From a virus (lineage: Duplodnaviria; Heunggongvirae; Uroviricota; Caudoviricetes), in IMG/VR virus record IMGVR_UViG_2695420649_000003: a stretch of DNA of 24,214 nucleotides; one strand, 5' to 3'. Each line of letters starts with the position of its first letter. Within the stretch, counting starts at the first letter, position 1. The notes beneath the pieces were generated by a model. The model ran no database searches, had not been told where the DNA came from, and saw only the letters and a list, made by a program, of their open reading frames with translations. Positions 1 to 17,375 of this stretch are shown here, in pieces. The position numbers were made by a program, and so were the translations under genes.

Positions 1-38
1 TGGAGCGGACAATCCAAATGGCGAATTACCGTCTTATA

Positions 39-365
39 TCACTGGCGCTGACACTTCATCACCTCCGGACGTAAATCACCATCCTTTGGTGCATTCAGAA
101 ACGCGTTCAGTGTCCCCGGTGCATCAGTCGGTGCCACATCAATATCCCCGACACGGGTTGGCTGCCAGCCGTTACAGTGAAGCGCAACCTCGTAATACCC
201 CGGCTCAGCCTCAATCACATAAGCACCGTTATTGTCCGTCACGCAAGTGGCAACAACGTGTGCCACAACGGTCGGACTGGTTCTTCTGGCCCGCAGTTCA
301 ATCGCACAATTTACGACAGGTTTACCCGCCCCATCTTTCAGTACACCTGAAATCTTTACTGCCAT
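39..365 (-). CDS. stf: Side tail fibre protein (Stf) N-terminal domain; ORF stops after ~108 aa, so truncated or disrupted
   Basis: Translation from the internal Met (MAVKISGVLKDGAGKPV...) matches the conserved N-terminus of lambda-type Stf as I recall it. It lies immediately downstream of lom, as in lambda. TGA stop at 39..41; no Stf-like continuation in the other two frames of the remaining 38 nt. Confidence 0.6.
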   Translation of the reverse strand: MAVKISGVLKDGAGKPVVNCAIELRARRTSPTVVAHVVATCVTDNNGAYVIEAEPGYYEVALHCNGWQPTRVGDIDVAPTDAPGTLNAFLNAPKDGDLRPEVMKCQRQ

Positions 366-428
366 ATTCACCCCACAAAAAGCCCGCCTGAACCAGCGGG
401 CAGTCATAACACTGTGTTACCTGGCTAA

Positions 429-1028
429 TCAGAACTTATAACCGACACCCACGATGAAACCGTCAGTGCGCCAGTCACCACTGCCGGAACCTTCATAAGC
501 AAGGTCAATGGCCACGGATTCGGTCGGGTTAAACTGCACGCCAGCCCCCCACGCCAGAGACGTGTTGCTGTGGCGACCGCCATCACTTCCGGTCAGCACA
601 TCGTGCGTTTTCCCCTTGTTGTCAGTTACGCGGAGATAATCCCCGGAGAAGGTCGACACACGGCTGTAAGCCACGCCCGCCATCGCATACGCGCTGAACC
701 ATTCATTCACGCGCACAGACGGCCCCGCCATCACGCTGAACCAGCGGTTACGCACGGAATCCTCATGCCAGCGGGTATCGCTGTAATGCGTTTTTTGCTC
801 ATCTTCAGCGTTGGCATAACTGAATGACGTAATCAGCCCCAGCGTGTCCGTAAACTCATAACGGTATTTCACGTTAATGCCCTTCAGGTCATCGCTGCCT
901 GGCATATCAGTATGGGTCTGAAGATACCCGGCGCTCAGCGTGGACTGATGTTCAGACGCCCATGCAGGCGCACCGGATACGGCCAGGCAAATGGCTGCGG
1001 ACAAAATGGCTGCACAAACTTTACGCAT
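429..1028 (-). CDS. lom: Lom outer-membrane beta-barrel protein (Ail/Lom family), 199 aa, full length
   Basis: ORF-track protein begins with the signal peptide MRKVCAAILSAAICLAVSGAPAWA and ends in ...GFIVGVGYKF, a typical beta-barrel terminus. Recognisable lambda Lom homologue in the expected position after J. Confidence 0.9.
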   Translation of the reverse strand: MRKVCAAILSAAICLAVSGAPAWASEHQSTLSAGYLQTHTDMPGSDDLKGINVKYRYEFTDTLGLITSFSYANAEDEQKTHYSDTRWHEDSVRNRWFSVMAGPSVRVNEWFSAYAMAGVAYSRVSTFSGDYLRVTDNKGKTHDVLTGSDGGRHSNTSLAWGAGVQFNPTESVAIDLAYEGSGSGDWRTDGFIVGVGYKF

Positions 1029-1052
1029 AATTACCTCTCGCTTTTCTGCAAT

Positions 1053-1076
1053 AAAAAAGGCACCATTTCTGGTGCC
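1053..1076 (-). terminator. Rho-independent terminator between J-like copy and lom (hairpin GGCACC/GGTGCC then T-run on the minus strand)
   Basis: Plus strand reads aaaaaa-GGCACC-atttct-GGTGCC; on the minus-strand transcript this is a 6-bp stem hairpin followed by UUUUUU. Sits 20 nt downstream of the J-like stop and upstream of the lom start. Confidence 0.55.
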
Positions 1077-1095
1077 CGTATCTGGGTTATAAAAT

Positions 1096-2202
1096 TCAGC
1101 TAATCGTGATGCCTGCAGTGGCTTTCTTCATCACCACAACCAGCAAATCGCTGATACTTGCTGTGGGATACCAGCCATTTACCAGCCATGCCGATACAGA
1201 AAACTCCAGCGTCATGTGACCGTGACCGGCAGGCATATCAATAACACCCGTATATATCAGCGTATTATCCAGGGTCGTTCGGTTATAAATTTCAGCACCG
1301 TTTTTCTTCACTATCAGGCGGCATGACGAATAAATATTGTTATTCTTCCGCTCATGTTTAGCACCGCGAAACGCCACCGCGGGAATAACAATTTGCCGAT
1401 CAAACGGCTGATCGTCATAAACCCTGACGGTAATGGTCCCTGATGGCCACCTCTCCGGTGCCCGGGAGTCCCGTGGGAAAGGTTTGCCCACTGTTTTAAC
1501 GAGATCGCCTTCAATCTGGTTCGCGGACAATTTTCCCAGAACCCGACAGTTCTTATTAATCGTGACGTTGTTGAGCGTCCCGGAGTTCGCGTTCACGTTA
1601 CCGCTGATATCGGCATTTTTCGCCGTCAGCCGTCCGCCAGGTGTCAGGGAAAATGCCGGAGGATTACCGCCGCTGGTAATGGTCGGAGCCGTCAGGCATT
1701 TCAGGAACACGTCGTTCATGAATATCTGATCGCCCTGACCAACAAACATCGGCTTTGTGTTGCCATTCGCAGGATTAATCATCGCAATCCTGTCTGCCGC
1801 CAGCAGCACCTGACTCTGCATTCCTGCTGGCGTATTCTCAATACCGGCACCGATACCCGCAATATAAAGGCGTCCGTCCTTCATCTGTTGCAGCTTCACA
1901 GCCCACATGCTGTTCAGGTTATTATTTGTATCAACCTGAACTTTCTGTATCTGCTGGATTGCAGCACTCTGATTTTCCAGTTTTTTATTGACGGTTTGCG
2001 TGATTTCATTGCTGACATTCGTAATGGACGTCCTGATTTCAGTCAGGTCCGGCGCAAGCTGACCGTTATCAATCTGCGTCCACAACTCCTTGCCGAGATG
2101 CGTTTTATTGATCAACCCTTTATAAAAATTCAGATAACCTTCTGCATCATCGCTCGCCCGACCGATGGCCTCCACAAATGCCGATTTGCCAACGGTGTTC
2201 AC
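1096..2202 (-). CDS. J: C-terminal portion (368 aa) of a second J-type tail-tip host-specificity protein with a distinct C-terminal domain; partial copy
   Basis: Protein aligns with the last ~370 aa of the full J at 4110..7607 (shared [37 protein letters not shown]..) but diverges over the last ~150 aa. Upstream continuity is broken by the N-run at 2357..2407. Confidence 0.75.
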
Positions 2203-2252
2203 ACTGCGAACGTAAAAATAATAATCATGGCCCGGCCTGATATTGATACTGG

Positions 2253-2511
2253 CGGCTATCCAGTACAGCGCCGTGCCAAGATAGCGTGCTGTGGTTTCAA
2301 CCTGCCTGATATCCGCAATCCGCTTTTCCGAGAACCAGAACTCAAACTGTACCGTCNNNNNNNNNNNNNNNNNNNNNNNNNNNNNNNNNNNNNNNNNNNN
2401 NNNNNNNCGGCTATCCAGTACAGCGCCGTGCCAAGATAGCGGGCGCTGGTTTCAACCTGCCTGATATCCGCAATCCGCTTTTCCGAAAACCAGAACTCAA
2501 ACTGCACCGTC
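2253..2511. repeat. 51-N gap (2357..2407) flanked by two near-identical 104-bp direct copies (2253..2356 and 2408..2511)
   Basis: Both flanks read cggctatccagtacagcgccgtgccaagatagcg...aactcaaactg(t/c)accgtc and differ at only a few positions. The left copy is identical to 5283..5386 in the full J gene. Pattern is typical of two overlapping contig ends joined with Ns. Confidence 0.85.
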
Positions 2512-3590
2512 GGGTCATATACAGCCAGTTTCGGGACCGCCGTTATCTGAAAATACCCCGGTATCAGTTCAATAGTGACAGGCGCTGCCGGTGCCGCAAT
2601 CCGGAACGATACCGACGCCGGATCGCCCTGCTGCCCCCGGGCATTTACCGCCCGGACTGTCAGACTGTAATTCCCCAGCGCCAGCTGCCTGAAGCGGTAT
2701 GTGGTTTCCGTCGTCCTGGCTGTGCTGACCAGCCGCTCACTGCCGTCGTCCGCTGCCACGGTCAGGCGAAGCAGGAAGCTCACACCCTTCACCACCTTCG
2801 GCGTGTCCCATCGCGCCAGCACCTGATATTCCCCGCTGTCTGCGGTGACTTCGGCAGTCAGGTGCTGCACCGCTGGCGGCGTGACACCATTCACCGTGCC
2901 GCGCCGGTCACCGTCAAAGTGTGCCCCGTTATCCACGATGGCCTCTTTTTCCGGCACATGCTGCACGGCGGTGATGGCATACGTGCCGTCGTCGTTCTCA
3001 CGGATACTCACGCAGCGGAACAGACGCTGGCGCAGCGTCGGCAGCTTCAGCCCCCACACGCTGTATTCTGCAACGCCGTCAGGAACCCGGCTCACTTTCA
3101 CCTTCACGCCGTCGGTGACGGACTGGACCTCCACGCTGACCGGATTGCCACTTCCGTCAACCAGGCTTATCAGCGTGGTACCGGAGGACGGCAGCGTGAT
3201 TTCACGGTCGAGCGTCAGCGTCCGGGTCTGGCTGTTCACCGCCAGTACGCGACCACCGGTGCTGATACCGGCATAATCATCATCGCAGATTTCAATGACA
3301 TCACCCGGTACATGGCGAAGCCCTTCTGCGCCCACGCTGAAGTCCACGGTCTGCGTTTCCAGCAGTTCCGTTTTAATCAGCCACAGCCCGGCTCGGTGTG
3401 CCTGCCCCCGGCTGGTACAGCCAAAGGCATCCATCTTCGTGACATTACGACCGTAACGGGCAATGGCCTGCGTATCCTCCACAAGCTCTGTCGCCGTCTC
3501 CCAGCCGTTATCTGGGTCAATCCAGTTCACCTCAACGGCATTATGGCGGTCCTTCAGGGCGCTGAAGCTGTAGCGGAACGGCGCGCCATC
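2256..3590 (-). pseudogene. J: Central portion of a J-like tail-tip gene (equivalent to J residues ~378-800), lacking its 5' end and interrupted by the N gap
   Basis: ORF 2256..3530 ([23 protein letters not shown]...) parallels the full J protein ([32 protein letters not shown]...). DNA homology to 6420..6471 continues to 3590, then stops abruptly at the 'n' at 3591. Frame is lost at the N-run. Confidence 0.7.
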
Positions 3591-3591
3591 N

Positions 3592-4039
3592 CATCACTTC
3601 CGGTCAGCACATCGTGCGTTTTCCCCTTATTGTCAGTTACGCGGATATAATCCCCGGAAAAAGTCGACACACGGCTGTAAGCCACACCCGCCATCGCATA
3701 CGCGCTGAACCATTCATTCACGCGCACAGACGGCCCCGCCATCACGCTGAACCAGCGGTTACGCACGGAATCTTCATGCCAGCGGGTATCGCTGTAACGG
3801 GTCAGCTGGCGATTCTTGTCTCCTGCATAGCTGAATGACGTCACCAGCCCCAGCGTATCCGTAAACTCATAACGGTATTTCACGTTAATCCCGTTCAGAT
3901 CATCACTGCCGGGAACGTTGGTCCGGGCATGAAGATACCCCGCGCTCAGCGTGGACTGATGTTCAGACGCCCATGCAGGCGCACCGGATACGGCCAGGCA
4001 AATGGCTGCGGACAAAATGGCTGCACAAACTTTACGCAT
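3592..4039 (-). pseudogene. lom: lom second allele, N-terminal ~149 codons only; 3' end replaced by J-like sequence at an 'n' junction
   Basis: Protein MRKVCAAILSAAICLAVSGAPAWASEHQSTLSAGYLHARTNVPGSDDLNGINVKYRYEF... is Lom-like up to ...THDVLTGSD, then the sequence switches to J-like DNA at position 3591. Differs from the lom at 429..1028 in a patch at residues ~36-80. Confidence 0.7.
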
Positions 4040-4063
4040 AATTACCTCTCGCTTTTCTGCAAT

Positions 4064-4087
4064 AAAAAAGGCGTCATTCCTGACGCC
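4064..4087 (-). terminator. Rho-independent terminator downstream of J (hairpin GGCGTCA/TGACGCC then T-run on the minus strand)
   Basis: Plus strand reads aaaaaa-GGCGTCA-ttcc-TGACGCC. Same architecture and position as the hairpin at 1053..1076 but with a different stem sequence. Confidence 0.55.
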
Positions 4088-4109
4088 ATTTATTGGGGTT
4101 ATAAATATT

Positions 4110-7100
4110 TCAACGAATACTGATGCCGGAAGCCGCTTTTTTGGTCACAATCACCGTACAGTCGGTGATATTGCCTGCCCCCTGATTGCCTTTCTGGAAA
4201 ATCTTAAACTCCAGAGTGACGCTACCACCACCACTAGGCATATCAATAACTGCACTGTAACTACCGGGAATGGCACCTTTAGTTTCTCTGGATGCGATTA
4301 ATACGCCGTTTTTGCGAACTTCAAAACCATAACCCGTGTATCGCGTGCCTCCTGGGTTATTTCCGCTCCCCGGATCGTCATACGCTATACCGTTAAAAAT
4401 AATGGGCGGAATAATAATCTGGCGGTCAAAGTTATGATCATCGCTTATGGTGACTGTAACCGTCCCGTTTGGTGTTTCCGTGTTACCCCACGTACCAGCC
4501 TGTTTCGGAAATGATTTGGATACAGCTTTAACGAAGTCACCTCTGACCTGAGTCGCCTCCAGCATGCCCTTAATCGTACAGTTTTCATTTACCGTGACAT
4601 TGTTGAGCGTCCCGGCGTTCGCATTCACACTGCCACTGATATCCGCATTTTTAGCGGTCAGCTTTCCGTCCGGAGTCAGGGAAAATGCCGATGGATTTCC
4701 ACCGCTGGTAATGGTGGGGGCCGTCAGGCGTTTCAGGAACACGTCGTTCATGAATATCTGATCGCCCTGACCAACAAACATCGGTTTTGTGTTGCCATTC
4801 GCAGGATTAACCATCGCAATCCTGTCCGCCGCCAGCAGCACCTGACTCTGCATGCCGTCAGGGGTGTTCTCAATACCGGCACCAATACCCGCGATATAAA
4901 GGCGTCCGTCCTGCATCTGCTGCAGCTTCACAGCCCACATGCTGTTCAGGTTATTATTTGTATCAACCTGAACCTTCTGTATCTGCTGAATTGCCGCACT
5001 CTGGTCTTCCAGTTTCTTATTGACGGTCTGCGTGATTTCATTGCTGACATCCGTAATGGACGTCCTGATTTCAGCCAGGTCAGGCGCAAGCTGACCGTTA
5101 TCAATCTGCGTCCACAGCTCCTGAGCCAGATGGGTTTTCCCTATCTCGCCTTTGAAAAAATCCAGATAACCGGATGCATCATCACTCGGCTGACCAACAG
5201 CCTCCACGAATGCCGATTTGCCAACGGTGTTCACACTGCGGATATAAAAGTAATAATCATGGCCCGGTTTGATATTGATACTGGCGGCTATCCAGTACAG
5301 CGCCGTGCCAAGATAGCGTGCTGTGGTTTCAACCTGCCTGATATCCGCAATCCGCTTTTCCGAGAACCAGAACTCAAACTGTACCGTCGGATCATAAACC
5401 GCAAGATGCGGCGTGGCGGTTATCTGAAAATAGCCCGGCGTCAGCTCAATCCGCGACAGCGCTGCCGGTGCGGCAATCCGGAACGATACCGACGCCGGAT
5501 CGCCCTGCTGCCCCCACGCATTTACTGCCCGGACTGTCAGCCTGTAGTTCCCCAGCGCCAGTTGTGTGAAGCGGTAAGTGGTTTCCGTCGTCCGGGCCGT
5601 GCTGACCAGCCGCTCACTGCCGTCATCCGCTGTTACGGTCAGACGGAGCAGGAAGCTCACGCCCTTCACCACCTTCGGCGTGTCCCAGCGCGCCAGCACC
5701 TGATATTCCCCGCTGTCTGCGGTGACTTCGGCAGTCAGGTGCTGCACCGCTGGCGGCGTGACACCATTCACCGTGCCGCTCTGGTCGCCGTCAAAGTGCG
5801 CCCCGTTATCCACGATGGCTTCTTTTTCCGGCACATGCTGCACGGCGGTGATGGCATACGTGCCGTCGTCGTTCTCACGGATACTCACGCAGCGGAACAA
5901 TCGCTGGTGCAGCGTCGGCAGCTTCAGCCCCCACACGCTGTATTCAGCAACACCGTCAGGAACACGGCTCACTTTTACCTTCACGCCGTCGGTGACGGAC
6001 TGGACCTCCACGCTGACCGGATTCCCCTGCCCGTCAACCAGGCTTATCAGCGTGGTGCCGGAGGATGGCAGCGTGATTTCACGGTCGAGCGTCAGCGTCC
6101 GGGTCTGGCTGTTCACCGCCAGCACGCGCCCGCCGGTGCGGATACCGGCATAGTCATCATCGCAGATTTCAATGACATCGCCCGGTACATGACGAAGCCC
6201 TTCAGCACCCACGCTGAAATCCACGGTCTGCGTCTCCAGCAGTTCCGTTTTAATCAGCCACAGCCCGGCGCGGTGTGCCTGCCCCCGGCTGGTACAGCCA
6301 AAGGCATCCATCTTCGTGACGTTACGACCGTAACGGACAATGGCCTGCGTATCCTCCACAAGCTCTGTCGCCGTCTCCCAGCCGTTATCCGGGTCAATCC
6401 AGTTCACCTCAACGGCATTATGGCGGTCTTTCAGGGCGCTGAAACTGTAGCGGAACGGCGCGCCATCATCCGGCATCACCACATTACTGCGGTTATAGGC
6501 CCACACCTTATCCGACTGTCGGTCCTGCACGAACGTCAGCGTCTGCCCGTTCCATACCGGCATACAGCGCATCGCCGAGCAGAAATCACTGAGCACATCC
6601 CACGCCTTGCGCTGTGTGGTCAGCCAGGCATTACAGGTGATGCGCGGCTCCGTGCTGCCAAAGCCGTCCGGCACCGACTGGTCACAGTACTGGCCGATGA
6701 CATACAGCGCCCATTTATCCACATCTGCCGCACCAAGACGTTTCCCCATGCCATAGCGCGGATGGGTCAGCATATCCCACAGACACCAGGCCATGTTGTT
6801 GCTGTATGCCGGTTTTAACGTTCCGTCCCAGATACCGCTGTATTGCCGCGTCTGCGGGTTATAGTTCGACGGCACCTGCAGAATGCGCCCGCGAAGATGA
6901 TAATTACGGCTCACCTGCTGGCTGCCGAACTGCTCCGAATCCACCTGTACGCCGACCAGTGCCGTGTTCGGGTAGCACTGTTTCACATCGATGATTTCGG
7001 TGTACGACGACCAGAGCGTTTTGTTCTGCAGCTGGTCTGTGGTGCTGTCCGGCGTCATTCTGCGCATCCGGATATTAAACGGGCGCGGCGGCAGGTTATC

Positions 7101-7607
7101 CACCACCACCGAGGCCAGATACTGCGAGGTGGTTTTGCCCTTAATGGTGATGTCTTTTTCCGTCACCCAGCCACCGTTACGCTGTATCTGAACCAGCAGG
7201 CGAACTTCAGACGGATTCCTGTCTCCCTTTGAGGTGGTTTCCACCAGTGCCTGTACACCGAAGGTAAAACGCAGTCGGTCAATGTTTGCCGACGTGATGG
7301 TCCGGGTGATCGGCGTGTCATATTTCACTTCCGTACCCAGCACCGTCTCGGAGCCGGAGGATTCAAATCCCTCCGGCGGTGACTGCTCCTGCTCACCTGC
7401 CCGGAACACCACCGTGACGCCGGAGATGTTGGTATTCCCCTCACTGTCCAGCACCGGCGTACTGTTCAGCAGCACGCTTTTTAATCCATCCACCGGACCT
7501 TCAACCGGCCCTTCGCTGATGGCATCGATCACACTCAGCAGCTGCGTGGACTTCAGGTTGTCCTTCGCTTCGCGCGGGGTATGCCCCTTACTGCTGCCTT
7601 TACCCAT
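4110..7607 (-). CDS. J: Tail tip / host-specificity protein J (central tail fibre), 1165 aa
   Basis: N-terminus [34 protein letters not shown]... matches lambda gpJ as I recall it. Lies after I in lambda order and contains fibronectin-type-III-like repeats. The last ~155 aa differ from the partial copy at 1096..2202. Confidence 0.95.
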
Positions 7608-7667
7608 TCGTCATGCTCCATAAACGATAAAACCGCCCGGAGGCGATTTCACATAAAACATTTTGCA

Positions 7668-8339
7668 TCAGCGACCAATCACCACAACCTGACCACCGTC
7701 CCCTTCGTCTGCCGTGCTGATCTCCTGAGATACCACACGTGACCCCACGCGCATTTCACCATACAGAACAGGCATAACATTGCCCTGGGCAACCATGTTA
7801 TCCAGTGAGGAGAAATAGGTGTTCTGCTTACCGTTATCCGTTGTCTGTGTGCGGGGAGTTCTGGCTTTCGGTGCCAGCATCTGAGCCACACCGCCGAGCA
7901 CCATACTGGCACCGAGAGAAAACAGAATGCCGGTCATACCACCGGCACCAATGGCAGCCCCCCATGCTGCAAGGGTGGCTCCGGCGGTAAAGAATGATCC
8001 GGCAATGGCGGCTGCTCCCAGGACAATCTGGAATACACCACCTGACTTGGCCCCGGCGACTCTGGGAACAATATGAATCACAGCGCCGTCAGGCAGAGCC
8101 TCATGTAACTGTGCCGTTAATCCGGACGTGCTAACATCCTGCCCGGCAATACGCACCTGATACCAGCCGTCGCTCAGCTTCTGACGAAACGCAGGGAGCT
8201 GTGTGGCCATCGCCCGGATGGCTTCGGCACCCGTTTTCACACGAAGGTCGATGCGGCGGCCAAATCGTTGCAAATCCCCGTAAAGGCAGATGCGTGCCAT
8301 GCCCGGTGACGCCAGAGGGAGTGTGTGCGTCGCTGCCAT
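7668..8339 (-). CDS. I: Tail assembly protein I, 223 aa
   Basis: Length and position match lambda gpI. Overlaps the 3' end of K by ~103 nt in another frame, as in lambda. Hydrophobic Gly/Ala-rich C-terminal half. Confidence 0.9.
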   Translation of the reverse strand: MAATHTLPLASPGMARICLYGDLQRFGRRIDLRVKTGAEAIRAMATQLPAFRQKLSDGWYQVRIAGQDVSTSGLTAQLHEALPDGAVIHIVPRVAGAKSGGVFQIVLGAAAIAGSFFTAGATLAAWGAAIGAGGMTGILFSLGASMVLGGVAQMLAPKARTPRTQTTDNGKQNTYFSSLDNMVAQGNVMPVLYGEMRVGSRVVSQEISTADEGDGGQVVVIGR

Positions 8340-8980
8340 TTGTCGGTATACCTCTCTCGTTTGCTCAGTTGTTCAGGAATATGGTGCAGCAGCTCGCCGT
8401 CACCACAGTAAATGGCGGCATGATTCGGCACCGATGAACCAAAACAGCACAGCAGCACATCGCCCGGCTGCGCCGCTGACAACGGCACCTGATACAGCCC
8501 TGTGGCCTCCAGATTATCCAGATAGAGATTCTGACCGTGACGCCACCAGTCATCCTCACGATGAAAATCCGGCATCTCAATCCCCGCCAGATGGTAAGCA
8601 TCCCGGAACAGCGTGTAACAGTCCGTCACCCCGTGCTCAAAGCGCCGCCCGGTAAGATGTGGCACACAGCGGAACTTGTGAATCGCCCCCCGGCAGACCA
8701 GCCACCACGGCAAATCACTCTGCACCTGCAGCCGCCGGTCGGCCTCACTCAGCCAGGGCAGACCACCGGGGTGGCTGTGGACCAGTGCCACAATCTCACC
8801 CTGCATCTCTGCCTGCAGCCAGTCTTCCGGCGACATACGGAAATACGCCTCCGGCTCACCGGAGATATTCACGCAGGGGAAATATCTTTCCCCCTCCGGC
8901 GTTCTTACCACGAAGCCGCACGACTCCGCTGGAGCACATCGCCGGGCGTGCGCCAGAATCGCTGATTCTGTCTCTGTCAT
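8237..8980 (-). CDS. K: Tail tip assembly protein K, MPN/JAMM plus NlpC/P60 two-domain protein (247-aa long form)
   Basis: ORF starts 6 nt after the L stop with MTETESAILAHARRC.... Contains a JAMM motif (HSHPGGLPWLSEAD) and Cys/His NlpC/P60-like motifs (DCYTLF, NHAAIY). An alternative internal start at Met49 (8836) would give the 199-aa product. Confidence 0.85.
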   Translation of the reverse strand: MTETESAILAHARRCAPAESCGFVVRTPEGERYFPCVNISGEPEAYFRMSPEDWLQAEMQGEIVALVHSHPGGLPWLSEADRRLQVQSDLPWWLVCRGAIHKFRCVPHLTGRRFEHGVTDCYTLFRDAYHLAGIEMPDFHREDDWWRHGQNLYLDNLEATGLYQVPLSAAQPGDVLLCCFGSSVPNHAAIYCGDGELLHHIPEQLSKRERYTDKWQRRTHSLWRHRAWHASAFTGICNDLAAASTFV

Positions 8981-8985
8981 GGGAT

Positions 8986-9684
8986 TTACTGCGAAAGTTT
9001 GTTAATGGAAAGGAAGCCGCCAAAGTTGCCGACGTTATTGCGAAACTTACAGCCACTCAGGCATTTGCTGCATTTATCCTTCGTGATGTCGGACGTTGGC
9101 TGGTCATATTCATCCGCGACCGCCGGACCGTGATAACCGCACTCATCGCCGCGATAGGTCCAGGTGCAGGTGTTGGCCAGCATGATACGTCCCGGAAAAA
9201 CAGCGCCATCTGTTTCCGTCGGCGTGGACAGTACAAAAGAGGCACTCACCGCGCTCAGTTCGCTGCACTGCTCAATGCGCCAGCGGCTGATCACCTCCTG
9301 CTCCGGATCGGCGTCACTGTTTCCGTTGACGAAGTTCACCGCATCCAGAAAACGGGCGTAAACCTTACGCCGGACCACCGTTCCGCCGACCAGACTCTGT
9401 AGATCTTCCGCCATCCCGGTGACCATACCGTACAGGTTAGAAACCATCAGCGTGGGGCGCGTACTGGTGCCTTTGCCATTCAGTTCAAAACCACTCCCCT
9501 GAATGGGATACGGCTGATACTGTCGCCCCTGCCAGGTGACCGGCTCACCTTTTTCGTTCTGCTCATTACAGAAAAAATAACGTTCTCCACCGACCTCTGT
9601 CAGATCGATTTCCCAGAGCACCACGCTGGCCGACTGCTCCGCACGGGTGCATTCATTCAGTGTTTCCTGCCGGATATCCTGCAT
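8986..9684 (-). CDS. L: Minor tail protein L, 232 aa
   Basis: MQDIRQETLNECTRAEQSASVVLWEIDLTEVGGERYFFCNEQNEKGEPVTWQGRQYQPYPIQGSGF... matches lambda gpL as I recall it, between M and K in lambda order. Confidence 0.93.
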   Translation of the reverse strand: MQDIRQETLNECTRAEQSASVVLWEIDLTEVGGERYFFCNEQNEKGEPVTWQGRQYQPYPIQGSGFELNGKGTSTRPTLMVSNLYGMVTGMAEDLQSLVGGTVVRRKVYARFLDAVNFVNGNSDADPEQEVISRWRIEQCSELSAVSASFVLSTPTETDGAVFPGRIMLANTCTWTYRGDECGYHGPAVADEYDQPTSDITKDKCSKCLSGCKFRNNVGNFGGFLSINKLSQ

Positions 9685-10013
9685 CAGTTCACCACCTGTT
9701 CAAACTCTGCGCTGAACTCAACACGCAGCATACTGACCCGCGACGACCATTTTGCGCAGGTCACCTTTATCTGCCGCCACTCATAAGGCGGCGTCCACAG
9801 AAAGGCTTTCCAGCCCCCGTGCTCTTCCAGAAACGACTCCAGTACCATGGCCTCCTCACGGGGGACAGAAAGCGTCACGCTGTACGTTTTCAGGTTGGCA
9901 TTCAGCCCGGCAGGCGCTCGCTGGGAATAGCCATCACCAAAGCGCACCTTTCTTACAGAAGGGGCCGAAGCCACATCCATACCGGGTTTCACTTTCCAGC
10001 GGAAGGTTTTCAT
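9684..10013 (-). CDS. M: Minor tail protein M, 109 aa
   Basis: MKTFRWKVKPGMDVAS...SAEFEQVVN matches lambda gpM as I recall it. Start overlaps the H stop (ATGA), end overlaps the L start by 1 nt, as in lambda. Confidence 0.93.
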   Translation of the reverse strand: MKTFRWKVKPGMDVASAPSVRKVRFGDGYSQRAPAGLNANLKTYSVTLSVPREEAMVLESFLEEHGGWKAFLWTPPYEWRQIKVTCAKWSSRVSMLRVEFSAEFEQVVN

Positions 10014-12571
10014 CGTCCACCTCCGGAGAACAGGCCACCATCACGCATCTGTGTCTGAATTTCATCACGGGCACCCTTGCGGGCCATGTCATACACGGCC
10101 TTCATCATCTGTGGACCTGGCAGACCATTCGTACCGTCGTTCTGAATCACCACGTGATTGTTCTGATTAAAATTAATGCCTTCAGCCCGCCGCATCTGCG
10201 CCGGACTTCCGGCACCGCCCACATAACCACCTTCCGCATAGCCGCGCATCAGCCGGTAGAGATTCCCCACGCCAATCCGGCTGGTTGCCTCCTTCGTGAA
10301 GACAAATTCACCACGGTGAACAATCCCCGCTGGCTCATATTTGCCGCCGGTTCCCGTAAATCCCCCGGTTGCAAAATGGAATTTCACCGCAGCGGCCTGA
10401 ATGGCTGTACCACCTGACGCGGATGCGCCGCCACCAACAGCCCCGCCAATGGCGCTGCCGATACTCCCGACAATCCCCACCATTGCCTGCTTAAGCAGAA
10501 TTTCTGTCATCATGGACAGCACGGAGCGGGTGAAGCTGCGCCAGTTCTGTTCACTGCCGGTCAGCATCGCCGCCATATTCTGTGCAATACCATCAAAGGT
10601 CTGCGTGGCTGCACTTTTAACCTGTGACATACTGTCCGTGGCGCTCTCTTCCCACTCACTCCAGCCGGACTTCAGGCCTGCCATCCAGCTCCCGCGAAGC
10701 TGGTCTTCAGCCGCCCAGGTCTTTTTCTGCTCTGACATGACGTTATTCAGCGCCAGAGGATTATCGCCATACTGTTCCTTCAGGCGCTGTTCCGTGGCTT
10801 CCCGCGCTGCCTGCCGGTCAGTCAGCCCCCGGTTTTTCGCATCAATGGCTGCCCGTTTTGCCCGTTGCTGCTGTGCGAATTTATCCGCCTGCTGCGCCAG
10901 CGCATTCAGGTGCTCCTGATACGTAACCTTGTCACCAAGTGCAGCCAGCTGGCGTTTGTACTCCAGCGTCTCGTCTTTATGCGCCAGCAGGGATTTCTCC
11001 TGTGCGGACAGCTGGCGACGTTGTGCCGCCTCCTCCAGTACCGCGAACTGACTTTCTGCCTTCCACAAATCCCGGCGCTGCTGGCTGATTTTCTCATTCG
11101 CTCCGGCATGCTTCTCCAGCGTCCGGAGTTCTGCCTGAAGCGTCAGCAGGGCCGCATGAGCACTGTCTTCCTGACGATCGCCCGCATACACCTTCACGCC
11201 GGACTGTTTCGGCTTTTTCAGCGTCGCTTCATAATCCTTTTTCGCCGCCGCCATCAGCGTGTTGTAATCTGCCTGCAGGATTTTTCCGTCTTTCAGTGCC
11301 TTGTTCAGTTCTTCCTGACGGGCGGTATATTTCTCCAGCGGCGTCTGCAGCCGTTCGTAAGCCTTCTGCGCCTCTTCGGTATATTTCAGCCGTGACGCTT
11401 CGGTATCGCTCTGCTGCTGCGCATTTTTGTCCTGTTGACGCTGTTGATCTACCCTCTTTTGGGCTGCATCCCGCTCCAGGCGTTTTTTTTCACGATCATC
11501 CCAGTAACGCGCCCGTGCTTCATCGTTAACGAAATAATCATCCTTGCGCAGATTCCAGATGTCGTCTGCTTTCTTAAACGCAGCCTCTGCCTTAATCAGC
11601 ATCTCCTGCGCGGTATCAGGACGACCAATATCCAGCACCGCATCCCACATGGATTTGAATGCACGTGCAGTCCTGTCTGCCCAGGTCTCCAGCGTGCCCA
11701 TGTTCTCTTTCAGGCGGCGGGTCTGGTCATCAAACCCTTTCGTTGCGGCCTCGTTCGCCGCCTGCAATGCCCCGGCTTCATCGCCGGAACGCTGCAACTG
11801 AGCAACATACGCAATCTGCTCCGCCGTCACGTTATGGAACTGGCGTGCCATCGCCGTCAGCCCCGACGTCGGGTCTGTGGTCAGCTTCCCGAAGGCTTCA
11901 GCGACCTTGTCCACCTCCACGCCGGATGCATAGGAGAAACGCGCCACACTCTGGCTGATGGACGCAATCTGAGCCTCACCGCTTACCCCCGCCTTAACCA
12001 GTGCGCTGAGTGACTCGCTGGTCTGGTTAAACGTCAGCCCTGCCGCCTGCCCGGCTCTGGACAGGACCAGCATACGATCTGCCGTCAGTCCCGCCTGATT
12101 ACCGGAAAGGACCAGCGTTTTGTTGAAATCGGACAGGGTTGAGTTGCCCTGATACCAGGCATACGCCAGCGCACCGGTCGCCACCGCCAGCGAGGTGGCC
12201 CCCACCATCGGCAGGGTGATCGCGCCGGCAAGCCCCCTGAACATGGGGATCATCCCGCCGAAGGAGTCCTTAACCTGACCACCCTGTTGCAGCAGGATCA
12301 GCCAGGGATTCTGCCCCCCTGCAAGCTGCGTGGCCACGTCGGTGAACTGTGCAGGCAGCATACGCATGGCGGCTTTATACTGCCCGACGGAAATCCCCGC
12401 TTTCTGTGCAGCCAGCGCCTGTCGGCTCAGCGACTGTTCAACGACTGCCGCTGTTTTTTTCGCATCACTTTCCGTACCGGAAAAATGACGCCTGACTCTG
12501 GCCATCTGCTCGTCAAATCTGGCCGCATCCAGACTCAAATCAACGACCAGATCGCCTACCGGTTCAGCCAT
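10010..12571 (-). CDS. H: Tail tape measure protein H, 853 aa
   Basis: Same length as lambda gpH. Long coiled-coil-rich central region (Q/R/E/A/K-rich), Gly-rich hydrophobic segment near the C-terminus. Position between T and M. Confidence 0.95.
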   Translation of the reverse strand: MAEPVGDLVVDLSLDAARFDEQMARVRRHFSGTESDAKKTAAVVEQSLSRQALAAQKAGISVGQYKAAMRMLPAQFTDVATQLAGGQNPWLILLQQGGQVKDSFGGMIPMFRGLAGAITLPMVGATSLAVATGALAYAWYQGNSTLSDFNKTLVLSGNQAGLTADRMLVLSRAGQAAGLTFNQTSESLSALVKAGVSGEAQIASISQSVARFSYASGVEVDKVAEAFGKLTTDPTSGLTAMARQFHNVTAEQIAYVAQLQRSGDEAGALQAANEAATKGFDDQTRRLKENMGTLETWADRTARAFKSMWDAVLDIGRPDTAQEMLIKAEAAFKKADDIWNLRKDDYFVNDEARARYWDDREKKRLERDAAQKRVDQQRQQDKNAQQQSDTEASRLKYTEEAQKAYERLQTPLEKYTARQEELNKALKDGKILQADYNTLMAAAKKDYEATLKKPKQSGVKVYAGDRQEDSAHAALLTLQAELRTLEKHAGANEKISQQRRDLWKAESQFAVLEEAAQRRQLSAQEKSLLAHKDETLEYKRQLAALGDKVTYQEHLNALAQQADKFAQQQRAKRAAIDAKNRGLTDRQAAREATEQRLKEQYGDNPLALNNVMSEQKKTWAAEDQLRGSWMAGLKSGWSEWEESATDSMSQVKSAATQTFDGIAQNMAAMLTGSEQNWRSFTRSVLSMMTEILLKQAMVGIVGSIGSAIGGAVGGGASASGGTAIQAAAVKFHFATGGFTGTGGKYEPAGIVHRGEFVFTKEATSRIGVGNLYRLMRGYAEGGYVGGAGSPAQMRRAEGINFNQNNHVVIQNDGTNGLPGPQMMKAVYDMARKGARDEIQTQMRDGGLFSGGGR

Positions 12572-12998
12572 ACCGGACTCCTCCTGCGATCCCTTCTGAT
12601 ACTGTCATCAGCATTACGTCATCCTCCGTCATGTCCGCCACATCCGGGGAAGCGGGGATAACTTCATTCCCGTCCGGGCCAAAGCGGACACCTCCGGCAA
12701 GCCCTGCCGCTTTCTGCATCAGCACATCATCTTCAGGCTCTTCGTCAGCCTCGCGCCGGTTCAGCAGACTGAAATCCAGCGGATGCATCTCCGGATCGCT
12801 GAAAAACAGGCTGAGCACGGTGTACGTCAGCCCGGAAAAGTGCATATCCAGCAGAACATCATGAAAATAATGGGTACTGTAAAAGCGGTGCCAGTCGGCA
12901 TACTCCGTGGATGACATCCCGGCAAGCATGGCGCGCCAGTCGGGTCGCCCCATCTCACGCGCCAGTTTCAGGGCAAAACTCAGCTCACCGTCGAACAC
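12564..12998 (-). CDS. T: T reading frame, expressed as the G-T fusion tail assembly chaperone by -1 programmed frameshift
   Basis: Frame -1 relative to G, beginning at the slippery site. Encodes VFDGELSFALKLAREMGRPDWRAMLAGMSSTEYADWHRFY..., matching the lambda gpGT C-terminal part as I recall it. No independent start or RBS expected. Confidence 0.85.
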   Translation of the reverse strand: MFDGELSFALKLAREMGRPDWRAMLAGMSSTEYADWHRFYSTHYFHDVLLDMHFSGLTYTVLSLFFSDPEMHPLDFSLLNRREADEEPEDDVLMQKAAGLAGGVRFGPDGNEVIPASPDVADMTEDDVMLMTVSEGIAGGVRYG

Positions 12999-13402
12999 TT
13001 TCCCGCAGAAACAGGCTCTGCAGGCCCGGCGTCCTCTGCCTGTTCAGGAGCATCATTCACCACAAACTCATACATACCGGACAGCCGGTACACCACGTTT
13101 TCAGCATGAGAAATTGCCTCTGTGGGCCAGGTGGTAAGCACTTCCTGCTCAATCTGTTTAACGGCTTCATTCATGGACGGCATCTGCGTCTTCTTCGGAT
13201 GGTTATGCCACAGGGACATCGCAACCACAAAAGCGCCGGTTCTGATGGCGTCTTCCACAGTAAACTTCCGGTTGCTGTCTGACTCCGCCTGTTCTGCCTG
13301 CCGTTTCATCAGGTCGAGATGCTCAATACGCTGCAGGGCTGACAGTTCAGAAAGCGTGACGGTCACACCGTTATGTTCAAATGATTCGGTTTTCAGGAAC
13401 AT
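12980..13402 (-). CDS. G: Tail assembly chaperone G, 140 aa
   Basis: MFLKTESFEHNGVTVTLSELSALQRIEHL...SAGKCSTVS matches lambda gpG as I recall it. Confidence 0.93.
   Translation of the reverse strand: MFLKTESFEHNGVTVTLSELSALQRIEHLDLMKRQAEQAESDSNRKFTVEDAIRTGAFVVAMSLWHNHPKKTQMPSMNEAVKQIEQEVLTTWPTEAISHAENVVYRLSGMYEFVVNDAPEQAEDAGPAEPVSAGKCSTVS
12998..13004 (-). other. Programmed -1 ribosomal frameshift slippery heptamer G GGA AAG (G to G-T)
   Basis: Plus strand CTTTCCC at 12998..13004 is the reverse complement of GGGAAAG. It sits at codons Gly-Lys six codons before the G stop, exactly as in lambda G/GT. Confidence 0.85.
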
Positions 13403-13417
13403 CGCTGACTCTCCGGA

Positions 13418-14158
13418 TTAACTGGCGGTGACGTTGATTTCTGCAACCGCAGCAAACTCACCATTACCAGATACGACCGGAATGTTGACCTTGCCTGCAG
13501 CAACACCTTTCACGGTGATGGTCATACCACTGACCGACACGGTGGCTTTTGTTTTATCCGCAGACACCGCACGGAAGCTCTTGTCGGTTGCGCCATCCGG
13601 CTGGAATGCCACGGTCAGCGTGGTGCTCTGCCCTTTCACTACGGAAGCACTGGCGGGTGTCACCGTCATGCCGGTCGTCGCCGTCACCGTGCTGCGATCT
13701 TCTGCCATCGACGGACGTCCCACATTGGTGACCTTCACCGTGCGGGTAATCACCTCCTTCGCCGTCACCGCCTTACCGATACTGCTGACCCAGCCACGGA
13801 ACACATCGACCGTGCCGTTCGGGAAGCGGATTTTATAGGCACGGGTATCACCTTCATTAAACCACGCCAGCAGCGCCTGCTGCCCCTGCTCTCCGGGCAT
13901 CCACGCCAGCGTGAAGCTGGTATCTCCGGCAGATTTCTGCCCCTGCCCGGTCGCAGTCCAGTCTGCATCTTCATCATCGAGATAGCTGTCGTCATAGGAC
14001 TCAGCGGTCAGTTCGCCGGGCGTCAGGTCTTTAACTTTTGCCAGACGCGACCAGTCAACGTCTGAAAGCGGGTTCGCATAAGGGTCACCGCTCCCCTTAT
14101 AAACCCACAGGGTGGTCCCGGCACCTTTCACCGGCATTGTAGGATTTGGTACAGGCAT
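13418..14158 (-). CDS. V: Major tail protein V, 246 aa, with C-terminal Ig-like domain
   Basis: Chosen start [24 protein letters not shown]... matches lambda gpV; the ORF-track ORF extends 10 codons upstream into U. C-terminal ~80 aa is Thr/Val/Ser-rich, consistent with a Big_2-type Ig-like domain. Confidence 0.93.
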
Positions 14159-14165
14159 AGCGTCC

Positions 14166-14561
14166 TCACATTTCATAGATAATGACATAAGTCAGATCGG
14201 CTGAACTCCACAGGCCCGCATCATCGTCGCGCCGGTAGTCATAGCCGCTGGCCACCATACTGGTGATCAAATCTGACAGTGCCGGGATATCGCTCATCAC
14301 AGGATAAATCCGGGACTCCATCCACGAATCCAGCTCTGAATCCGGCACCTGAGCAGGCAGGAAAACTTCAATATGCAGCTCCGCCTGCCAGGTATCGCTG
14401 TCCAGCTCTTCGCCCGTGTATTCAGCGCCGGTGAGATAAACGGCAATTGCCGGAAAATCTTCCTCATCAAAAACAGCGGGGCGACCATCAAAAAGCGTCG
14501 CCCCGGTGTCATGCTTCTCCAGTGCATCCAGTACGGCTGCACGGAGTTCAGTATGTTTCAT
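14166..14561 (-). CDS. U: Tail terminator protein U, 131 aa
   Basis: [78 protein letters not shown]... matches lambda gpU as I recall it. Confidence 0.93.
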
Positions 14562-15136
14562 CGCTTTATTACCATTCTCAGTTGATGCTGCAGCGCATAG
14601 CCCAGCTCTTTCGGAAGACGTTCACGCCGTATCCGTTCAATATTCTGTTTAAACGCCGTGGTCAGCGGCACCGCCATCGGGATTTTCACCACATCAATGG
14701 GGTAACGGTTTTTCCCGGCCACACGCTGCATAACATGCCACCGGCCGTTTTTCAGTTGCTGAATAAACGCGCCGGGAATACGACGGTTACCCACCACAAG
14801 CACGCTGCCGCCACCTTTCAGGGATGAACGCTGCCCCTTTTTATGACGCCTGCGGCGGGACAGGACAACCCGCGCATTACCCAGCTTGATTACGGGCAAA
14901 TCCCCCCGGTTAACTTTGATTCTGGCCTGCGGATTTTTGACCGTGGCCCTTTTCAGCCTGGCCCTTTCCTTTACCAGTTTCCGGCGTACCTTTGTCTCAC
15001 GGGCAACCTGTGACGCAGACTGCGATATCGCGGATGAAGCAACGCGGTTAATGGCCATTGCGGCGGCACCGGGCACCGCCGTTTTGCTGATACGGCTGAG
15101 GTTTTCAACGGCCTGCTCAAGACCTTTTATGGCCAT
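14558..15136 (-). CDS. Z: Tail completion protein Z, 192 aa
   Basis: MAIKGLEQAVENLSRISKTAVPGAAAMAINRVASSAISQSASQVARETKVRRK... matches lambda gpZ as I recall it. Overlaps the U start by 4 nt. Confidence 0.93.
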   Translation of the reverse strand: MAIKGLEQAVENLSRISKTAVPGAAAMAINRVASSAISQSASQVARETKVRRKLVKERARLKRATVKNPQARIKVNRGDLPVIKLGNARVVLSRRRRHKKGQRSSLKGGGSVLVVGNRRIPGAFIQQLKNGRWHVMQRVAGKNRYPIDVVKIPMAVPLTTAFKQNIERIRRERLPKELGYALQHQLRMVIKR

Positions 15137-15147
15137 ACATCCCCCTT

Positions 15148-15501
15148 TCAGCGGCGACGGTTAACGGCAGGCGGTACGCCCCGTCCAAGCCAGAGATGAC
15201 AACTTCCGCCATCATCCGGCGAAACCCGATCTACCCAGAAATTTTCCTCACCGATGGTCAGCGTGTCTCCACGCCGCAGCTGCCGCACCTCATCAGTCCG
15301 GACAAACAGGGACGGGCTGGAGCCTTCAACGCGCACGCCCTGTCCGGCATAGCTGATATTTTCAGGGTCATCAAAAACACCACGTATCACCGCACCTGAC
15401 TGCTCACCGGATGTCATGGTGGCTGACGTTCCCATGTACCCGCGTATCGTTTCATCGGCGCGGGCAATGGCAGCATCGAACAGGTTATCGAAATCAGCCA
15501 C
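15148..15501 (-). CDS. FII: Head-tail joining / head completion protein FII, 117 aa
   Basis: MADFDNLFDAAIARADETIRGYMGTSATMTSGEQSGAVIRGVFDDPENISYAGQGVRVEGSSPSLFVRTDEVRQLRRGDTL... matches lambda gpFII as I recall it. Confidence 0.93.
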   Translation of the reverse strand: MADFDNLFDAAIARADETIRGYMGTSATMTSGEQSGAVIRGVFDDPENISYAGQGVRVEGSSPSLFVRTDEVRQLRRGDTLTIGEENFWVDRVSPDDGGSCHLWLGRGVPPAVNRRR

Positions 15502-15512
15502 AGCGCCTCCCG

Positions 15513-15911
15513 TTATTGCATTCTGGCCAGGCCGCGCTCTGTCATTTCGGCTGCCACACCGGCAGAGACACGAAACGCCGTTCCCGGCAGCACAAATGCC
15601 ACAGGTTTATCCCGCGTGGCGTGAAGTGCATCAGTATGCAGCGTCACCAGTGCCACGACCGTGACCAGTTCAGCCGTATCCTGAATCACGGTATCCGGCT
15701 GCGCTGATACCACCTCATTTTCATGCCCGGTCAGCACATTTTCCCGGCTGAGAGGGGTGTCCTGACCGGCAGTTTCATCCGTGTCATCAAGCTCTTCTTC
15801 CAGCTCTGCCACACGAAGCGCCAGTTCTTCTTTCGTTCCCGTCAAACTGACATCGCGGTTCAATTGCTCACCCAGCTCCTGAAGACGGGCAATCAGTTCA
15901 TCTTTCGTCAT
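15513..15911 (-). CDS. FI: DNA packaging protein FI, 132 aa
   Basis: Chosen start MTKDELIARLQELGEQLNRDVSLTGTKEELALRVAELEEELDDTDETAGQ... matches lambda gpFI; the ORF-track ORF has 13 extra upstream codons. Confidence 0.9.
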   Translation of the reverse strand: MTKDELIARLQELGEQLNRDVSLTGTKEELALRVAELEEELDDTDETAGQDTPLSRENVLTGHENEVVSAQPDTVIQDTAELVTVVALVTLHTDALHATRDKPVAFVLPGTAFRVSAGVAAEMTERGLARMQ

Positions 15912-15952
15912 GAACTCCTCCACAGAGAGAAAATGGCCCCGAAGGGCCATGA

Positions 15953-16978
15953 TTACGCCAGTTGAACGGACACGAACTCATCAGGATCAGCCAGCAGCAT
16001 CAGCGGTGCTGACTGAATCATGGTGAACTCACGCGCCGGATCGCCGGTGGTCACCCAGTTTTTCGGGTAACGGGCAGAAGCGTTAATGCCTTCGCGCTGT
16101 GCGTCCGCATCCTGAATGCAGCCATAGGTGCGCAGACCGCGAGCCTGAGTGTTCCCCAGCACCATCGTGTTGTCCGGCAGGAAGTTCTTTTTGACGCCGT
16201 TTTCCACGTACTGTCCGGAATACACGACGATGGCCACATCGCCATACATTCCCTTATAGGACACCGCTTTGCCCAGGTCTTTTACCGCTGTCTCCAGCTC
16301 GGAATGAGAGCCGCGACGGGTATCCAGCTTCTCCTTGACGGCTTTGAAGGAACGGAACAGCGCCCAGCCTTTCGGGTCAAACACGATGATATTCACCACA
16401 CCGCTGGCGTTCAGCGCGTAGGCTTCGATATCGTCGGTCGGGTCATACGTGGACTTGTCACGCTTGCTCCACTCCGTGACGCCGGACTGTGTGATGTTGT
16501 TCGCCGCACTGCGGCCCATATCCACCTCAACCGGATCGAAGGCTTCACCGGTCATGGTGTATTTGCCCTTGAGCACGGCAGAAACTGCCTGCATCTCTTC
16601 GACCTGAGCAATGGCCAGCTCTTCGTCACGCATGTTCTGCATGATGATGCGACGGCGGCGGTAAGCCGGGTCCGCCAGATTCTGCGGATCTTCATCCGGC
16701 AGGCGACGCAGGGTCATCTGCGGATTCACCTCATGCTTGGGTTTGACATATCCCGGCGTAAATTCAGAGGTGGAGCCGCCACGGGAACGGATAACCTCAC
16801 CGGAAACAATCGGCGAAACGTACAGCGCCATGTTTACCAGTCCCGGAATTTGTGAGAGATAGACTTTCTCCGTAGTGAAGGGATAGCTCTCACGGAAAAA
16901 GAGACGCAGAAACAGCGGATCAAACTTAAATTTCTGCTCATTTGCCGCCAGCAGCTGGGCGGTTGTGTACATCGACAT
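15953..16978 (-). CDS. E: Major capsid protein E, 341 aa
   Basis: Chosen start MSMYTTAQLLAANEQKFKFDPLFLRLFFRESYPFTTEKVYLSQIPGLVNMALYVSPIVSGEVIRSRGG... matches lambda gpE; the ORF-track ORF has 9 extra upstream codons. Confidence 0.95.
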   Translation of the reverse strand: MSMYTTAQLLAANEQKFKFDPLFLRLFFRESYPFTTEKVYLSQIPGLVNMALYVSPIVSGEVIRSRGGSTSEFTPGYVKPKHEVNPQMTLRRLPDEDPQNLADPAYRRRRIIMQNMRDEELAIAQVEEMQAVSAVLKGKYTMTGEAFDPVEVDMGRSAANNITQSGVTEWSKRDKSTYDPTDDIEAYALNASGVVNIIVFDPKGWALFRSFKAVKEKLDTRRGSHSELETAVKDLGKAVSYKGMYGDVAIVVYSGQYVENGVKKNFLPDNTMVLGNTQARGLRTYGCIQDADAQREGINASARYPKNWVTTGDPAREFTMIQSAPLMLLADPDEFVSVQLA

Positions 16979-17366: not shown

Positions 17367-17375
17367 AAACATCCC

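Follow-up and report, generated by a model that had tools for sequence, protein, structure and literature searches.

The window analysed here, 24,214 nt long, is the entire whole-genome shotgun scaffold CXCA01000059.1 (GCA_001255655.1), which consists of three contigs (Table 1). Its apparent tail-gene duplication most probably (we would put the probability at roughly 93% from the sequence comparisons below) represents a scaffolding misjoin of two Shigella sonnei prophages, which we will call X and Y, and not a duplication. The gene order described in the original prediction (J, the 5' part of lom, the 3' two-thirds of J, lom and stf on the minus strand) is indeed present in the record. Of the J-lom/J'-lom' duplication read from it, the order and the genes therefore stand, but the contiguity does not, with Ns at 3591 and 2357-2407.

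Table 1. Contigs, gaps and genes of the scaffold.
Feature	Position	Strand	Remarks
Contig 1	1-2356	-	prophage Y: stf fragment, lom A, C-terminal part of J_Y (1096-2356)
stf, N-terminal fragment	39-407	-	phage_tail_N Pfam
lom A	429-1028	-	complete, 199 aa; Ail_Lom Pfam
J' (J 3' two-thirds)	1096-3590	-	interrupted by 51 N
Scaffold gap, 51 N	2357-2407		artefactual; flanking contig ends overlap by 104 nt
Contig 2	2408-3590	-	mid-J_Y (1159-aa J), codons 381 to ~775
Single N	3591		sole link between J' and lom'; probable scaffolder join, not sequenced DNA
Contig 3	3592-24214	-	prophage X: lom B 5' part, J_X, lambda-type late operon
lom B 5' part (lom')	3592-4039	-	codons 1-149; left end of contig 3
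J_X	4110-7607	-	complete tip attachment protein J, 1165 aa; prophage X
Late operon upstream of J_X	7668-24214	-	rest of contig 3; by ORF position and length
I, K, L, M, H (853 aa), T, G, V, U, Z, then head genes, portal, terminase A, Nu1	7668-24214		
DUF1398 ORF	23587-24012	+	within contig 3

All six GpJ domains (FNIII-A_GpJ, Phage-tail_3, Ig_J, Ig_J_second, Phage_Tail_Tip and Ig_GpJ_C) were found by Pfam in J_X, while the J' pieces have just the C-terminal subset, with Phage-tail_3 (partial), Ig_J and Ig_J_second in contig 2 and Phage_Tail_Tip and Ig_GpJ_C in the J_Y part of contig 1. Lom A matches PF06316 along profile positions 1-199 of 199 (E = 4e-129), that is, as a full-length Ail/Lom beta-barrel, and lom' along positions 1-148 only. 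Head gene names in contig 3 were assigned by position only; the gene and Pfam tables for this contig are direct through the tail tube gene, and portal, terminase, Nu1 and DUF1398 were named via related prophages. The final 34 nt of the window resemble the end of an IS element.

Contig 3 is part of a known S. sonnei prophage. From 3592 to 15607 it is 99.94-99.98% identical to the lambda-like prophage carried by finished genomes of S. sonnei (99.98% for L009, L006 and L005), with 2 mismatches in 12,016 nt to strain Ss046, and the match ends precisely at 3592. An identical J_X protein was found in 4293 collection blocks, those of S. sonnei Ss046 and 53G among them. In finished S. sonnei the X locus runs from J through a lom with a natural truncation to a tail fibre gene of 1027 aa and tfa; this lom B has a 77-nt internal deletion, encodes a 160-aa product and is followed by stf. 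None of the 8 arrangements shown for the locus (summarising 39 contigs read) has a second J, and an independent draft contig (L012) follows the reference lom B for another 22 nt.

Contigs 1 and 2 match another locus. Contig 1 aligns to positions 11028-8673 of L013 (S. sonnei CP104423.1, ~1.99 Mb) with 99.70% identity and 7 mismatches, and contig 2 to positions 8776-7594 with 99.83% identity and 2 mismatches, both of which are J_X bases. In fact all nine mismatches to the Y locus (at 987, 990, 2287, 2290, 2291, 2332, 2350, 2856 and 2862) carry the base of the contig 3 paralog. The Y locus, a degraded prophage, has a complete J of 1159 aa and the exact 199-aa Lom, and exact Lom A adjoins a complete 1159-aa J in 10 of the 10 places shown. 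In strain 75/02 the Y module is present with an 8183-nt perfect tandem copy. Contig 3 is found in CP104423.1 at ~1.30-1.31 Mb (J_X at 1,306,450-1,309,947) and contigs 1 and 2 at ~1.99-2.00 Mb (J_Y at 1,993,569-1,997,048, on the same strand as J_X), and X and Y are ~684 kb apart in the same orientation in finished S. sonnei chromosomes. The fallback offered in the original prediction, of an assembly chimera from a genome with at least two lambdoid prophages, is thus borne out by the parental loci being found separately in the same finished chromosomes. The occurrence of two diverged J and lom alleles within one scaffold might also suggest a mixed or contaminated culture, with one assembly made from two strains that differ in their lambdoid prophages. 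However, such an explanation is unnecessary, as every finished S. sonnei chromosome examined has both alleles, at separate loci of a single replicon, and CP104423.1 alone carries both exact proteins, so that we consider it extremely improbable.

The copies were correctly described as non-identical. Pairwise identities between window segments are 89.2-93.4% (93.4% for 2408-3590 vs 5285-6467, 90.1% for 1546-2356 vs 4578-5388 and 89.2% for 581-1113 vs 3592-4127), far above chance, and the J/lom regions of X and Y share 88-93% identity with exact runs of 60-92 nt. In a genuine tandem duplication within one prophage, a ~3-kb J(3')-lom unit would have been copied by unequal or illegitimate recombination via an 8-bp microhomology and then diverged, resulting in a phage with a pair of receptor-binding J C-termini and a pair of Lom alleles. 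The gene order of the record fits such an event, and E. coli S42 has an apparent structure of the same kind, free of Ns, in which copies with 98% identity repeat at a period of 3007 nt. However, the distal copy shares 90-93% identity with its neighbour vs 99.7-99.8% with a separate S. sonnei locus, and so was not derived from the proximal one. Moreover, the junction is an N without continuous sequence across it, the 8-mer is missing from the true parental sequences, J' is in a different reading frame from lom' and has a 155-nt artefact splitting it, and the arrangement is found in no finished S. sonnei chromosome inspected. Tandem duplication within one prophage is hence extremely improbable, and the second tail-tip/Lom set, proposed to provide this prophage with alternative alleles, belongs to the separate locus Y.

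The single N at position 3591 sits exactly at the lom'/J' junction, where the record reads CGCCATC-N-CATCA. The 8-bp microhomology CGCCATCA claimed for the breakpoint is absent from the abutted sequences; it lies instead in their paralogs, at 574-581 in lom A and at 6461-6468 in J_X, the copies nearby, and reference J_Y (CGCCATCG) and reference lom B (CCGTCATCA) have CATC alone in common. For unrelated ends an 8-bp match would be a coincidence of ~1e-4, but this apparent significance dissolved on reading the true parental sequences. Past the end of contig 2 the reference J_Y runs G TCCGGCATCACC..., that is, as a normal J. Each of the two contigs that meet at the N ends against a paralog SNP (G in J_Y vs A in J_X; T in lom B vs C in lom A), with contig 2 stopping one base short of the SNP that discriminates J_Y from J_X. 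Extension stopping at paralog SNPs fits these two ends better than a single de Bruijn k; the exact matches at contig ends (23, 34, 37 and 119 nt) agree with no single value of k.

The 51-N gap inside J' is demonstrably artefactual, since the contig ends flanking it overlap instead of being separated. Segments 2253-2356 and 2408-2511 are one 104-nt stretch of J present twice with 5 mismatches, and L013 8673-8776 is covered by both contig 1 and contig 2. The 1051-nt query across the gap corresponds to 896 nt in finished genomes, because 51 Ns and the 104-nt overlap have to be subtracted. The last 119 nt of contig 1 (2238-2356) match the paralog J_X exactly.

Searches for the junction elsewhere also set this scaffold apart. 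A one-piece match spanning the lom'/J' junction was found in 0 of 5426 finished E. coli genomes, and in thousands of S. sonnei assemblies the junction read-through ORF turned up on no contig but this one. S. sonnei falls within the E. coli species cluster in GTDB, and therefore the 0 hits to the junction pattern (joined directly or with at most 5 nt of filler) in GTDB genomes are uninformative about its source. The sister draft CXDH01000136.1 contains J_Y, lom A, stf' and the start of an IS, then one N, then mid-J_X, lom B and stf. This single-N join of Y to X differs from, and is incompatible with, that of the window, and the draft has a run of 68 Ns at the same J_Y site as our 51-N gap. The E. 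coli S42 record (CP010236.1) has the same order of J, partial lom, partial J, lom and stf without any N, which counts against a misjoin to the extent that such a structure is not impossible. However, its breakpoints differ (in lom at the equivalent of window position 3681 and in J at that of 6680), its apparent copies are 98% identical in contrast to 90-93% here, and its junction is found in 1 of the 5426 finished E. coli genomes. The apparent S42 structure is unrelated to the junction of the window. Two further candidates for a J-lom'-'J-lom arrangement, H1 and H3, turned out to have the ordinary lom-J order with an internal deletion in J.

Could the two loci have been joined in this isolate itself? 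Such a rearrangement would link lom B of X to mid-J of Y, either by deletion or by insertion of a copied fragment, through illegitimate or short-homology recombination, with the assembler missing one base call. A direct join is geometrically possible with X and Y on the same strand, S. sonnei genomes rearrange often (the tandem copy in 75/02 is one example), and the contig ends overlap by the 4-nt CATC, a match with a chance of ~0.4% that could hint at a real junction. However, CATC is present on either side of the N, at the end of contig 2 and at the start of contig 3, while at a real microhomology junction the two would have merged into one. Joining the loci directly (1,310,465 to 1,994,709 in CP104423.1) would delete ~684 kb, which is very unlikely to be viable. 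The artefactual nature of the other gap in the same scaffold, the confinement of the junction ORF to one contig and the different chimera of the same loci in the sister draft also argue against this scenario, which we regard as very unlikely. On the sequences compared, a join that is real in this isolate, with illegitimate recombination fusing X lom to Y mid-J or inserting a copy, appears very improbable indeed. Reads across it would be expected as CGCCATCACTT or similar, and the prophage would then be followed by a promoterless second receptor-binding J C-terminus along with a second Lom allele, on which recombination might draw to switch host range.

A scaffolding misjoin, on the other hand, would account for the entire arrangement. 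The Ns at 3591 and 2357-2407 are placeholders at the joins, the pieces are at different loci in a closed genome of the same clone (CP104423.1), the signs of repeat-induced error include redundant flanks (the 104-nt overlap), the wrong-paralog 119 nt, bleed of paralog bases (9/9) and SNP-abutting ends, and the join is both unique and inconsistent with that in the sister assembly. As for the particular software steps, we infer the following sequence. Three short-read contigs of an S. sonnei isolate would have been strung together by a paired-end scaffolder, with contig 3 representing the late operon of X, broken off within lom, and contigs 1 and 2 representing the 3' two-thirds of J, lom and the stf fragment of Y. 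Since the J/lom regions of X and Y are this similar (88-93%, with identical stretches of 60-92 nt), short reads and read pairs would cross-map between them. Mates of contig 2 from the 5' third of J_Y may have been placed on the near-identical 5' third of J_X in contig 3, thereby linking contig 2 upstream of contig 3, ordered and oriented as in the record, and the non-positive gap between them would have been written as one N. Gap filling probably then lengthened the contig ends until it was halted by conflicting paralog reads, at the SNPs flanking the N. At the 51-N gap the end of contig 1 would have been extended along the wrong paralog, so that the 104-nt overlap could not be merged.

The accession series suggests that Velvet, SSPACE and GapFiller were used for this assembly. 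Searching the literature for both WGS accessions brought up no relevant paper, and the neighbouring CX-prefix sets CXBN, CXBR and CXBV are tabulated as S. sonnei isolates of Holt et al. 2012 (PMC5447701).

What remains is two ordinary, previously sequenced S. sonnei prophage regions and not a real feature. The duplication and the microhomology breakpoint are both unsupported and carry no biological weight. Draft Shigella and E. coli scaffolds are liable to false joins at paralogous lambdoid tail genes, and a 'duplication' with an N at its junction should be compared with closed genomes before it is read as host-range or Lom allele diversity.

The two regions have clear counterparts among known prophages. 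The Ss046/53G prophage (CP000038.1, HE616528.1) has the order ...H-M-L-K-I-J-lom(truncated)-stf-tfa-IS1 and shares with contig 3 its gene order and the identical 1165-aa J, but it proceeds from lom to the tail fibre gene, whereas the scaffold switches at the N to the J of the other prophage. The Y remnant (CP104423.1, 1.987-2.008 Mb) reads M-L-K-I-J(1159 aa)-lom(199 aa)-stf fragment-IS and in S. sonnei chromosomes has a transporter cluster of ABC-3/ZnuA type downstream of it. Its J is whole, in contrast to the scaffold copy, which is devoid of the first 380 codons and has the remainder split by the false gap. The same module is present with 95-99% identity in E. coli FDAARGOS_943 and O121 201805972, and related EIEC prophages have ipaH downstream. 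The joins themselves resemble the false joins described for greedy paired-end scaffolding and gap filling with SSPACE/GapFiller in repeat-rich drafts (PMC5320598, PMC3446322), with which they share the Ns, the unmerged redundant ends, the SNP-halted extension and a differing chimera in a sister assembly.

The genes follow one another on the minus strand as the original prediction described, ORF listing and self-comparison agreeing (see table), and the two J/lom copies are indeed homologous yet diverged, with identities in the window self-comparison of 93.4% (2408-3590 vs 5285-6467), 90.1% (1546-2356 vs 4578-5388) and 89.2% (581-1113 vs 3592-4127). The headline reading of this order as a tandem duplication in situ is not right. 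The record is a chimera that scaffolding has made from two known S. sonnei prophage regions, paralogs of each other: the lambda-like prophage X (J_X, lom B) and a second, degraded prophage Y (J_Y, lom A), and the J-lom/J'-lom' arrangement is a property of the database record, not of a genome. What held was the fallback of two lambdoid prophages or an assembly chimera. X and Y lie separately in CP104423.1 (J_X at 1,306,450-1,309,947 and J_Y at 1,993,569-1,997,048, same strand).

The window contains 52 N, a single one at 3591, which is the exact lom'/J' junction, and a run of 51 at 2357-2407 inside J'; it therefore consists of three contigs, c1 (1-2356), c2 (2408-3590) and c3 (3592-24214). The flanks of the run (2253-2356 and 2408-2511) are one and the same 104-nt part of J, with 5 mismatches, and c1 and c2 overlap on locus Y by the same 104 nt. 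Finished E. coli genomes matching both flanks at 97-98.7% need only 896 nt for the 1051-nt gap query, a length that equals 1051 minus the 51 Ns and minus the 104-nt overlap. Judged from these alignments, the 51-N gap is demonstrably false, and the 155-nt artefact is why J' is seen as two ORFs in different frames. Over its terminal 119 nt, c1 matches the other J copy (5270-5388) at 100% identity.

Features of the window, with the positions at which c1 and c2 differ from locus Y
Feature	Position	Strand	Remarks
J, complete	4110-7607	-	1165 aa, all six GpJ Pfam domains
lom 5' part, first 149 codons	3592-4039	-	ORF listing, self-comparison, Pfam
J fragment without first third	1096-3590	-	ORF listing, self-comparison, Pfam
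lom, complete (lom A)	429-1028	-	199 aa, full-length Ail_Lom
stf N-terminal fragment	39-407	-	ORF listing, Pfam
DUF1398 ORF, 141 aa	23587-24012	+	inside low-GC stretch (33-44%), region 23000-24214
c1/c2 differences from locus Y	987, 990, 2287, 2290, 2291, 2332, 2350, 2856, 2862		paralog base in all

The exact J_X protein is found in 4293 blocks of the collection, CP000038.1 and HE616528.1 among them, which are S. sonnei Ss046 and 53G (PMC5447701). Segment 3592-15607 matches these S. sonnei chromosomes at 99.94-99.98% identity and the match ends exactly at 3592, past which the reference chromosomes run on through the rest of lom and then have a gene for a 1027-aa tail fibre, followed by tfa and IS1; an independent draft contig extends 22 nt past the end of c3 along this reference lom path. 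In finished S. sonnei, lom B (window 3592-4039; 11569-12051 in L009, the S. sonnei X locus) encodes a natural, pseudogene-like truncated product of 160 aa, because an internal deletion of 77 nt (lom nt 478-554) puts the gene out of frame; the lom 5' part would thus be a truncated gene with or without the misjoin. A second J at locus X is absent from all 8 arrangements shown, which summarise 39 contigs, and a duplication in situ within one prophage, as originally proposed from the gene order, has next to no chance of being correct.

The collection has the exact Lom A protein in 1874 blocks, and in 10/10 places shown it is preceded by a complete 1159-aa J within a degraded prophage. Locus Y, to which c1 is 99.70% and c2 99.83% identical, has the layout M-L-K-I-J-lom-stf fragment-IS elements, and an ABC-3/ZnuA-type transporter cluster lies downstream of it. 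In E. coli, the J_Y-lomA-stf module has its closest relatives in FDAARGOS_943 (L003, 5501-7146) and O121 201805972 (L004, 5395-7146); in both loci the tail fibre genes are closely followed by the T3SS effector genes ipaHe or ipaHd, and the module thus belongs to ipaH-carrying EIEC/Shigella prophages. S. sonnei 75/02 (CP019689.1; L017/L018) carries two prophage-Y tail modules (M-L-K-I-J-lom + IS) at a distance of 9417 nt; they share an 8183-nt stretch at 100% identity, a pattern that looks like a recent IS-associated duplication.

The two loci have perfectly matching runs of 60-92 nt in common all through J, lom and the tail genes upstream, and all nine differences of c1/c2 from locus Y have the base of the homologous c3 paralog position. 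N 3591 falls on a SNP that tells the paralogs apart, for J as for lom (reference J_Y G vs J_X A; reference lom B T vs lom A C), so both contigs end exactly where reads of the two paralogs would conflict. An 8-bp microhomology had been proposed at the breakpoint; the 8-mer CGCCATCA is found in lom A and J_X, but the sequences actually abutted, J_Y (CGCCATC/G, broken at the slash) and lom B (CCGT/CATCA), have only CATC in common. This CATC sits unmerged on both sides of the N, a 4-nt coincidence with a chance of ~0.4%, and is the only observation leaning towards a real, isolate-specific join. Such a join, which taken literally would delete ~684 kb (CP104423.1 coordinates), is nonetheless very unlikely. 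The junction is found in one piece in none of the 5426 finished E. coli genomes compared, and scanning GTDB genomes for its pattern gave no match. The read-through ORF across N 3591 (161 aa, with X) is on record in one contig only, CXCA01000059.1 (GCA_001255655.1; 24,214 nt), whose sequence, once reverse-complemented, is exactly that of the window; since the two match end to end, the window is a whole draft scaffold.

How could the chimera have arisen? SSPACE writes a non-positive gap without detectable overlap as a single n. A table in PMC5447701 lists CX-prefixed S. sonnei WGS records of the neighbouring sets CXBN, CXBR and CXBV as isolates of Holt et al. 2012. The Sanger assembly pipeline runs Velvet, then SSPACE and GapFiller, which extends both gap edges and closes a gap only where these overlap by at least 10 nt and the gap size agrees (PMC5320598; PMC3446322). 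CXCA01000059.1 was probably assembled in this way (a literature search for the accessions gave no paper). GapFiller's behaviour would then account for edge extension halting at the paralog SNPs beside N 3591, for the 4-nt and 104-nt overlaps left unmerged under the closure rule, and for the c1 end having been extended along J_X during gap filling. One other contig on record, CXDH01000136.1 (GCA_001259155.1; L023), has the truncated 368-aa J' ORF. It carries a 68-N run (1329-1396) at the same J_Y position as the gap in the window, suggesting that the error is systematic in this draft set, and a different single-N join (N at 3908), J_Y-lomA-stf'-IS start, N, mid-J_X-lomB-stf. The two drafts thus fuse the same pair of loci in ways that contradict each other, which is the picture that repeat-induced scaffolding errors give.

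In finished genomes, position 1 is ~50 nt short of an IS transposase gene (11077 in L013, the CP104423.1 Y locus). At the right-hand end, likeness to other lambdoid prophages ends at 24180, and the terminal 34 nt (24181-24214, TGGATTTGCCCCTATATTTCCAGACATCTGTTAT) look like the terminal inverted repeat of an IS element, presumably IS2-like, so that here the scaffold appears to stop at an IS boundary. The DUF1398 ORF lies between Nu1 and the lysis genes in related prophages. Its protein, found unchanged in 7942 blocks, is very widespread, and the gene has the look of an ordinary accessory gene of lambdoid prophages.

E. coli FORC 064 (CP022664.1; L001, 6519-8048) was rejected as a junction match, the order there being ordinary lom-J; this locus is what remains of a prophage, with a J that has lost a large internal or N-terminal part, and it gave a misleading '100% coverage' match to the junction query in two pieces. 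A J-lom'-'J-lom arrangement is itself conceivable in view of E. coli S42 (CP010236.1; L002, locus 3714-9723), where a finished, N-free tandem J-lom(partial)-J(partial)-lom has copies 97.97% identical (61 mismatches, no gaps) with a period of 3007 nt. Its junction, near locus 6712-6721 and present in 1/5426 genomes, represents either a rare real duplication/recombination or a long-read misassembly; its breakpoints differ from those of the window, to whose junction it is unrelated.
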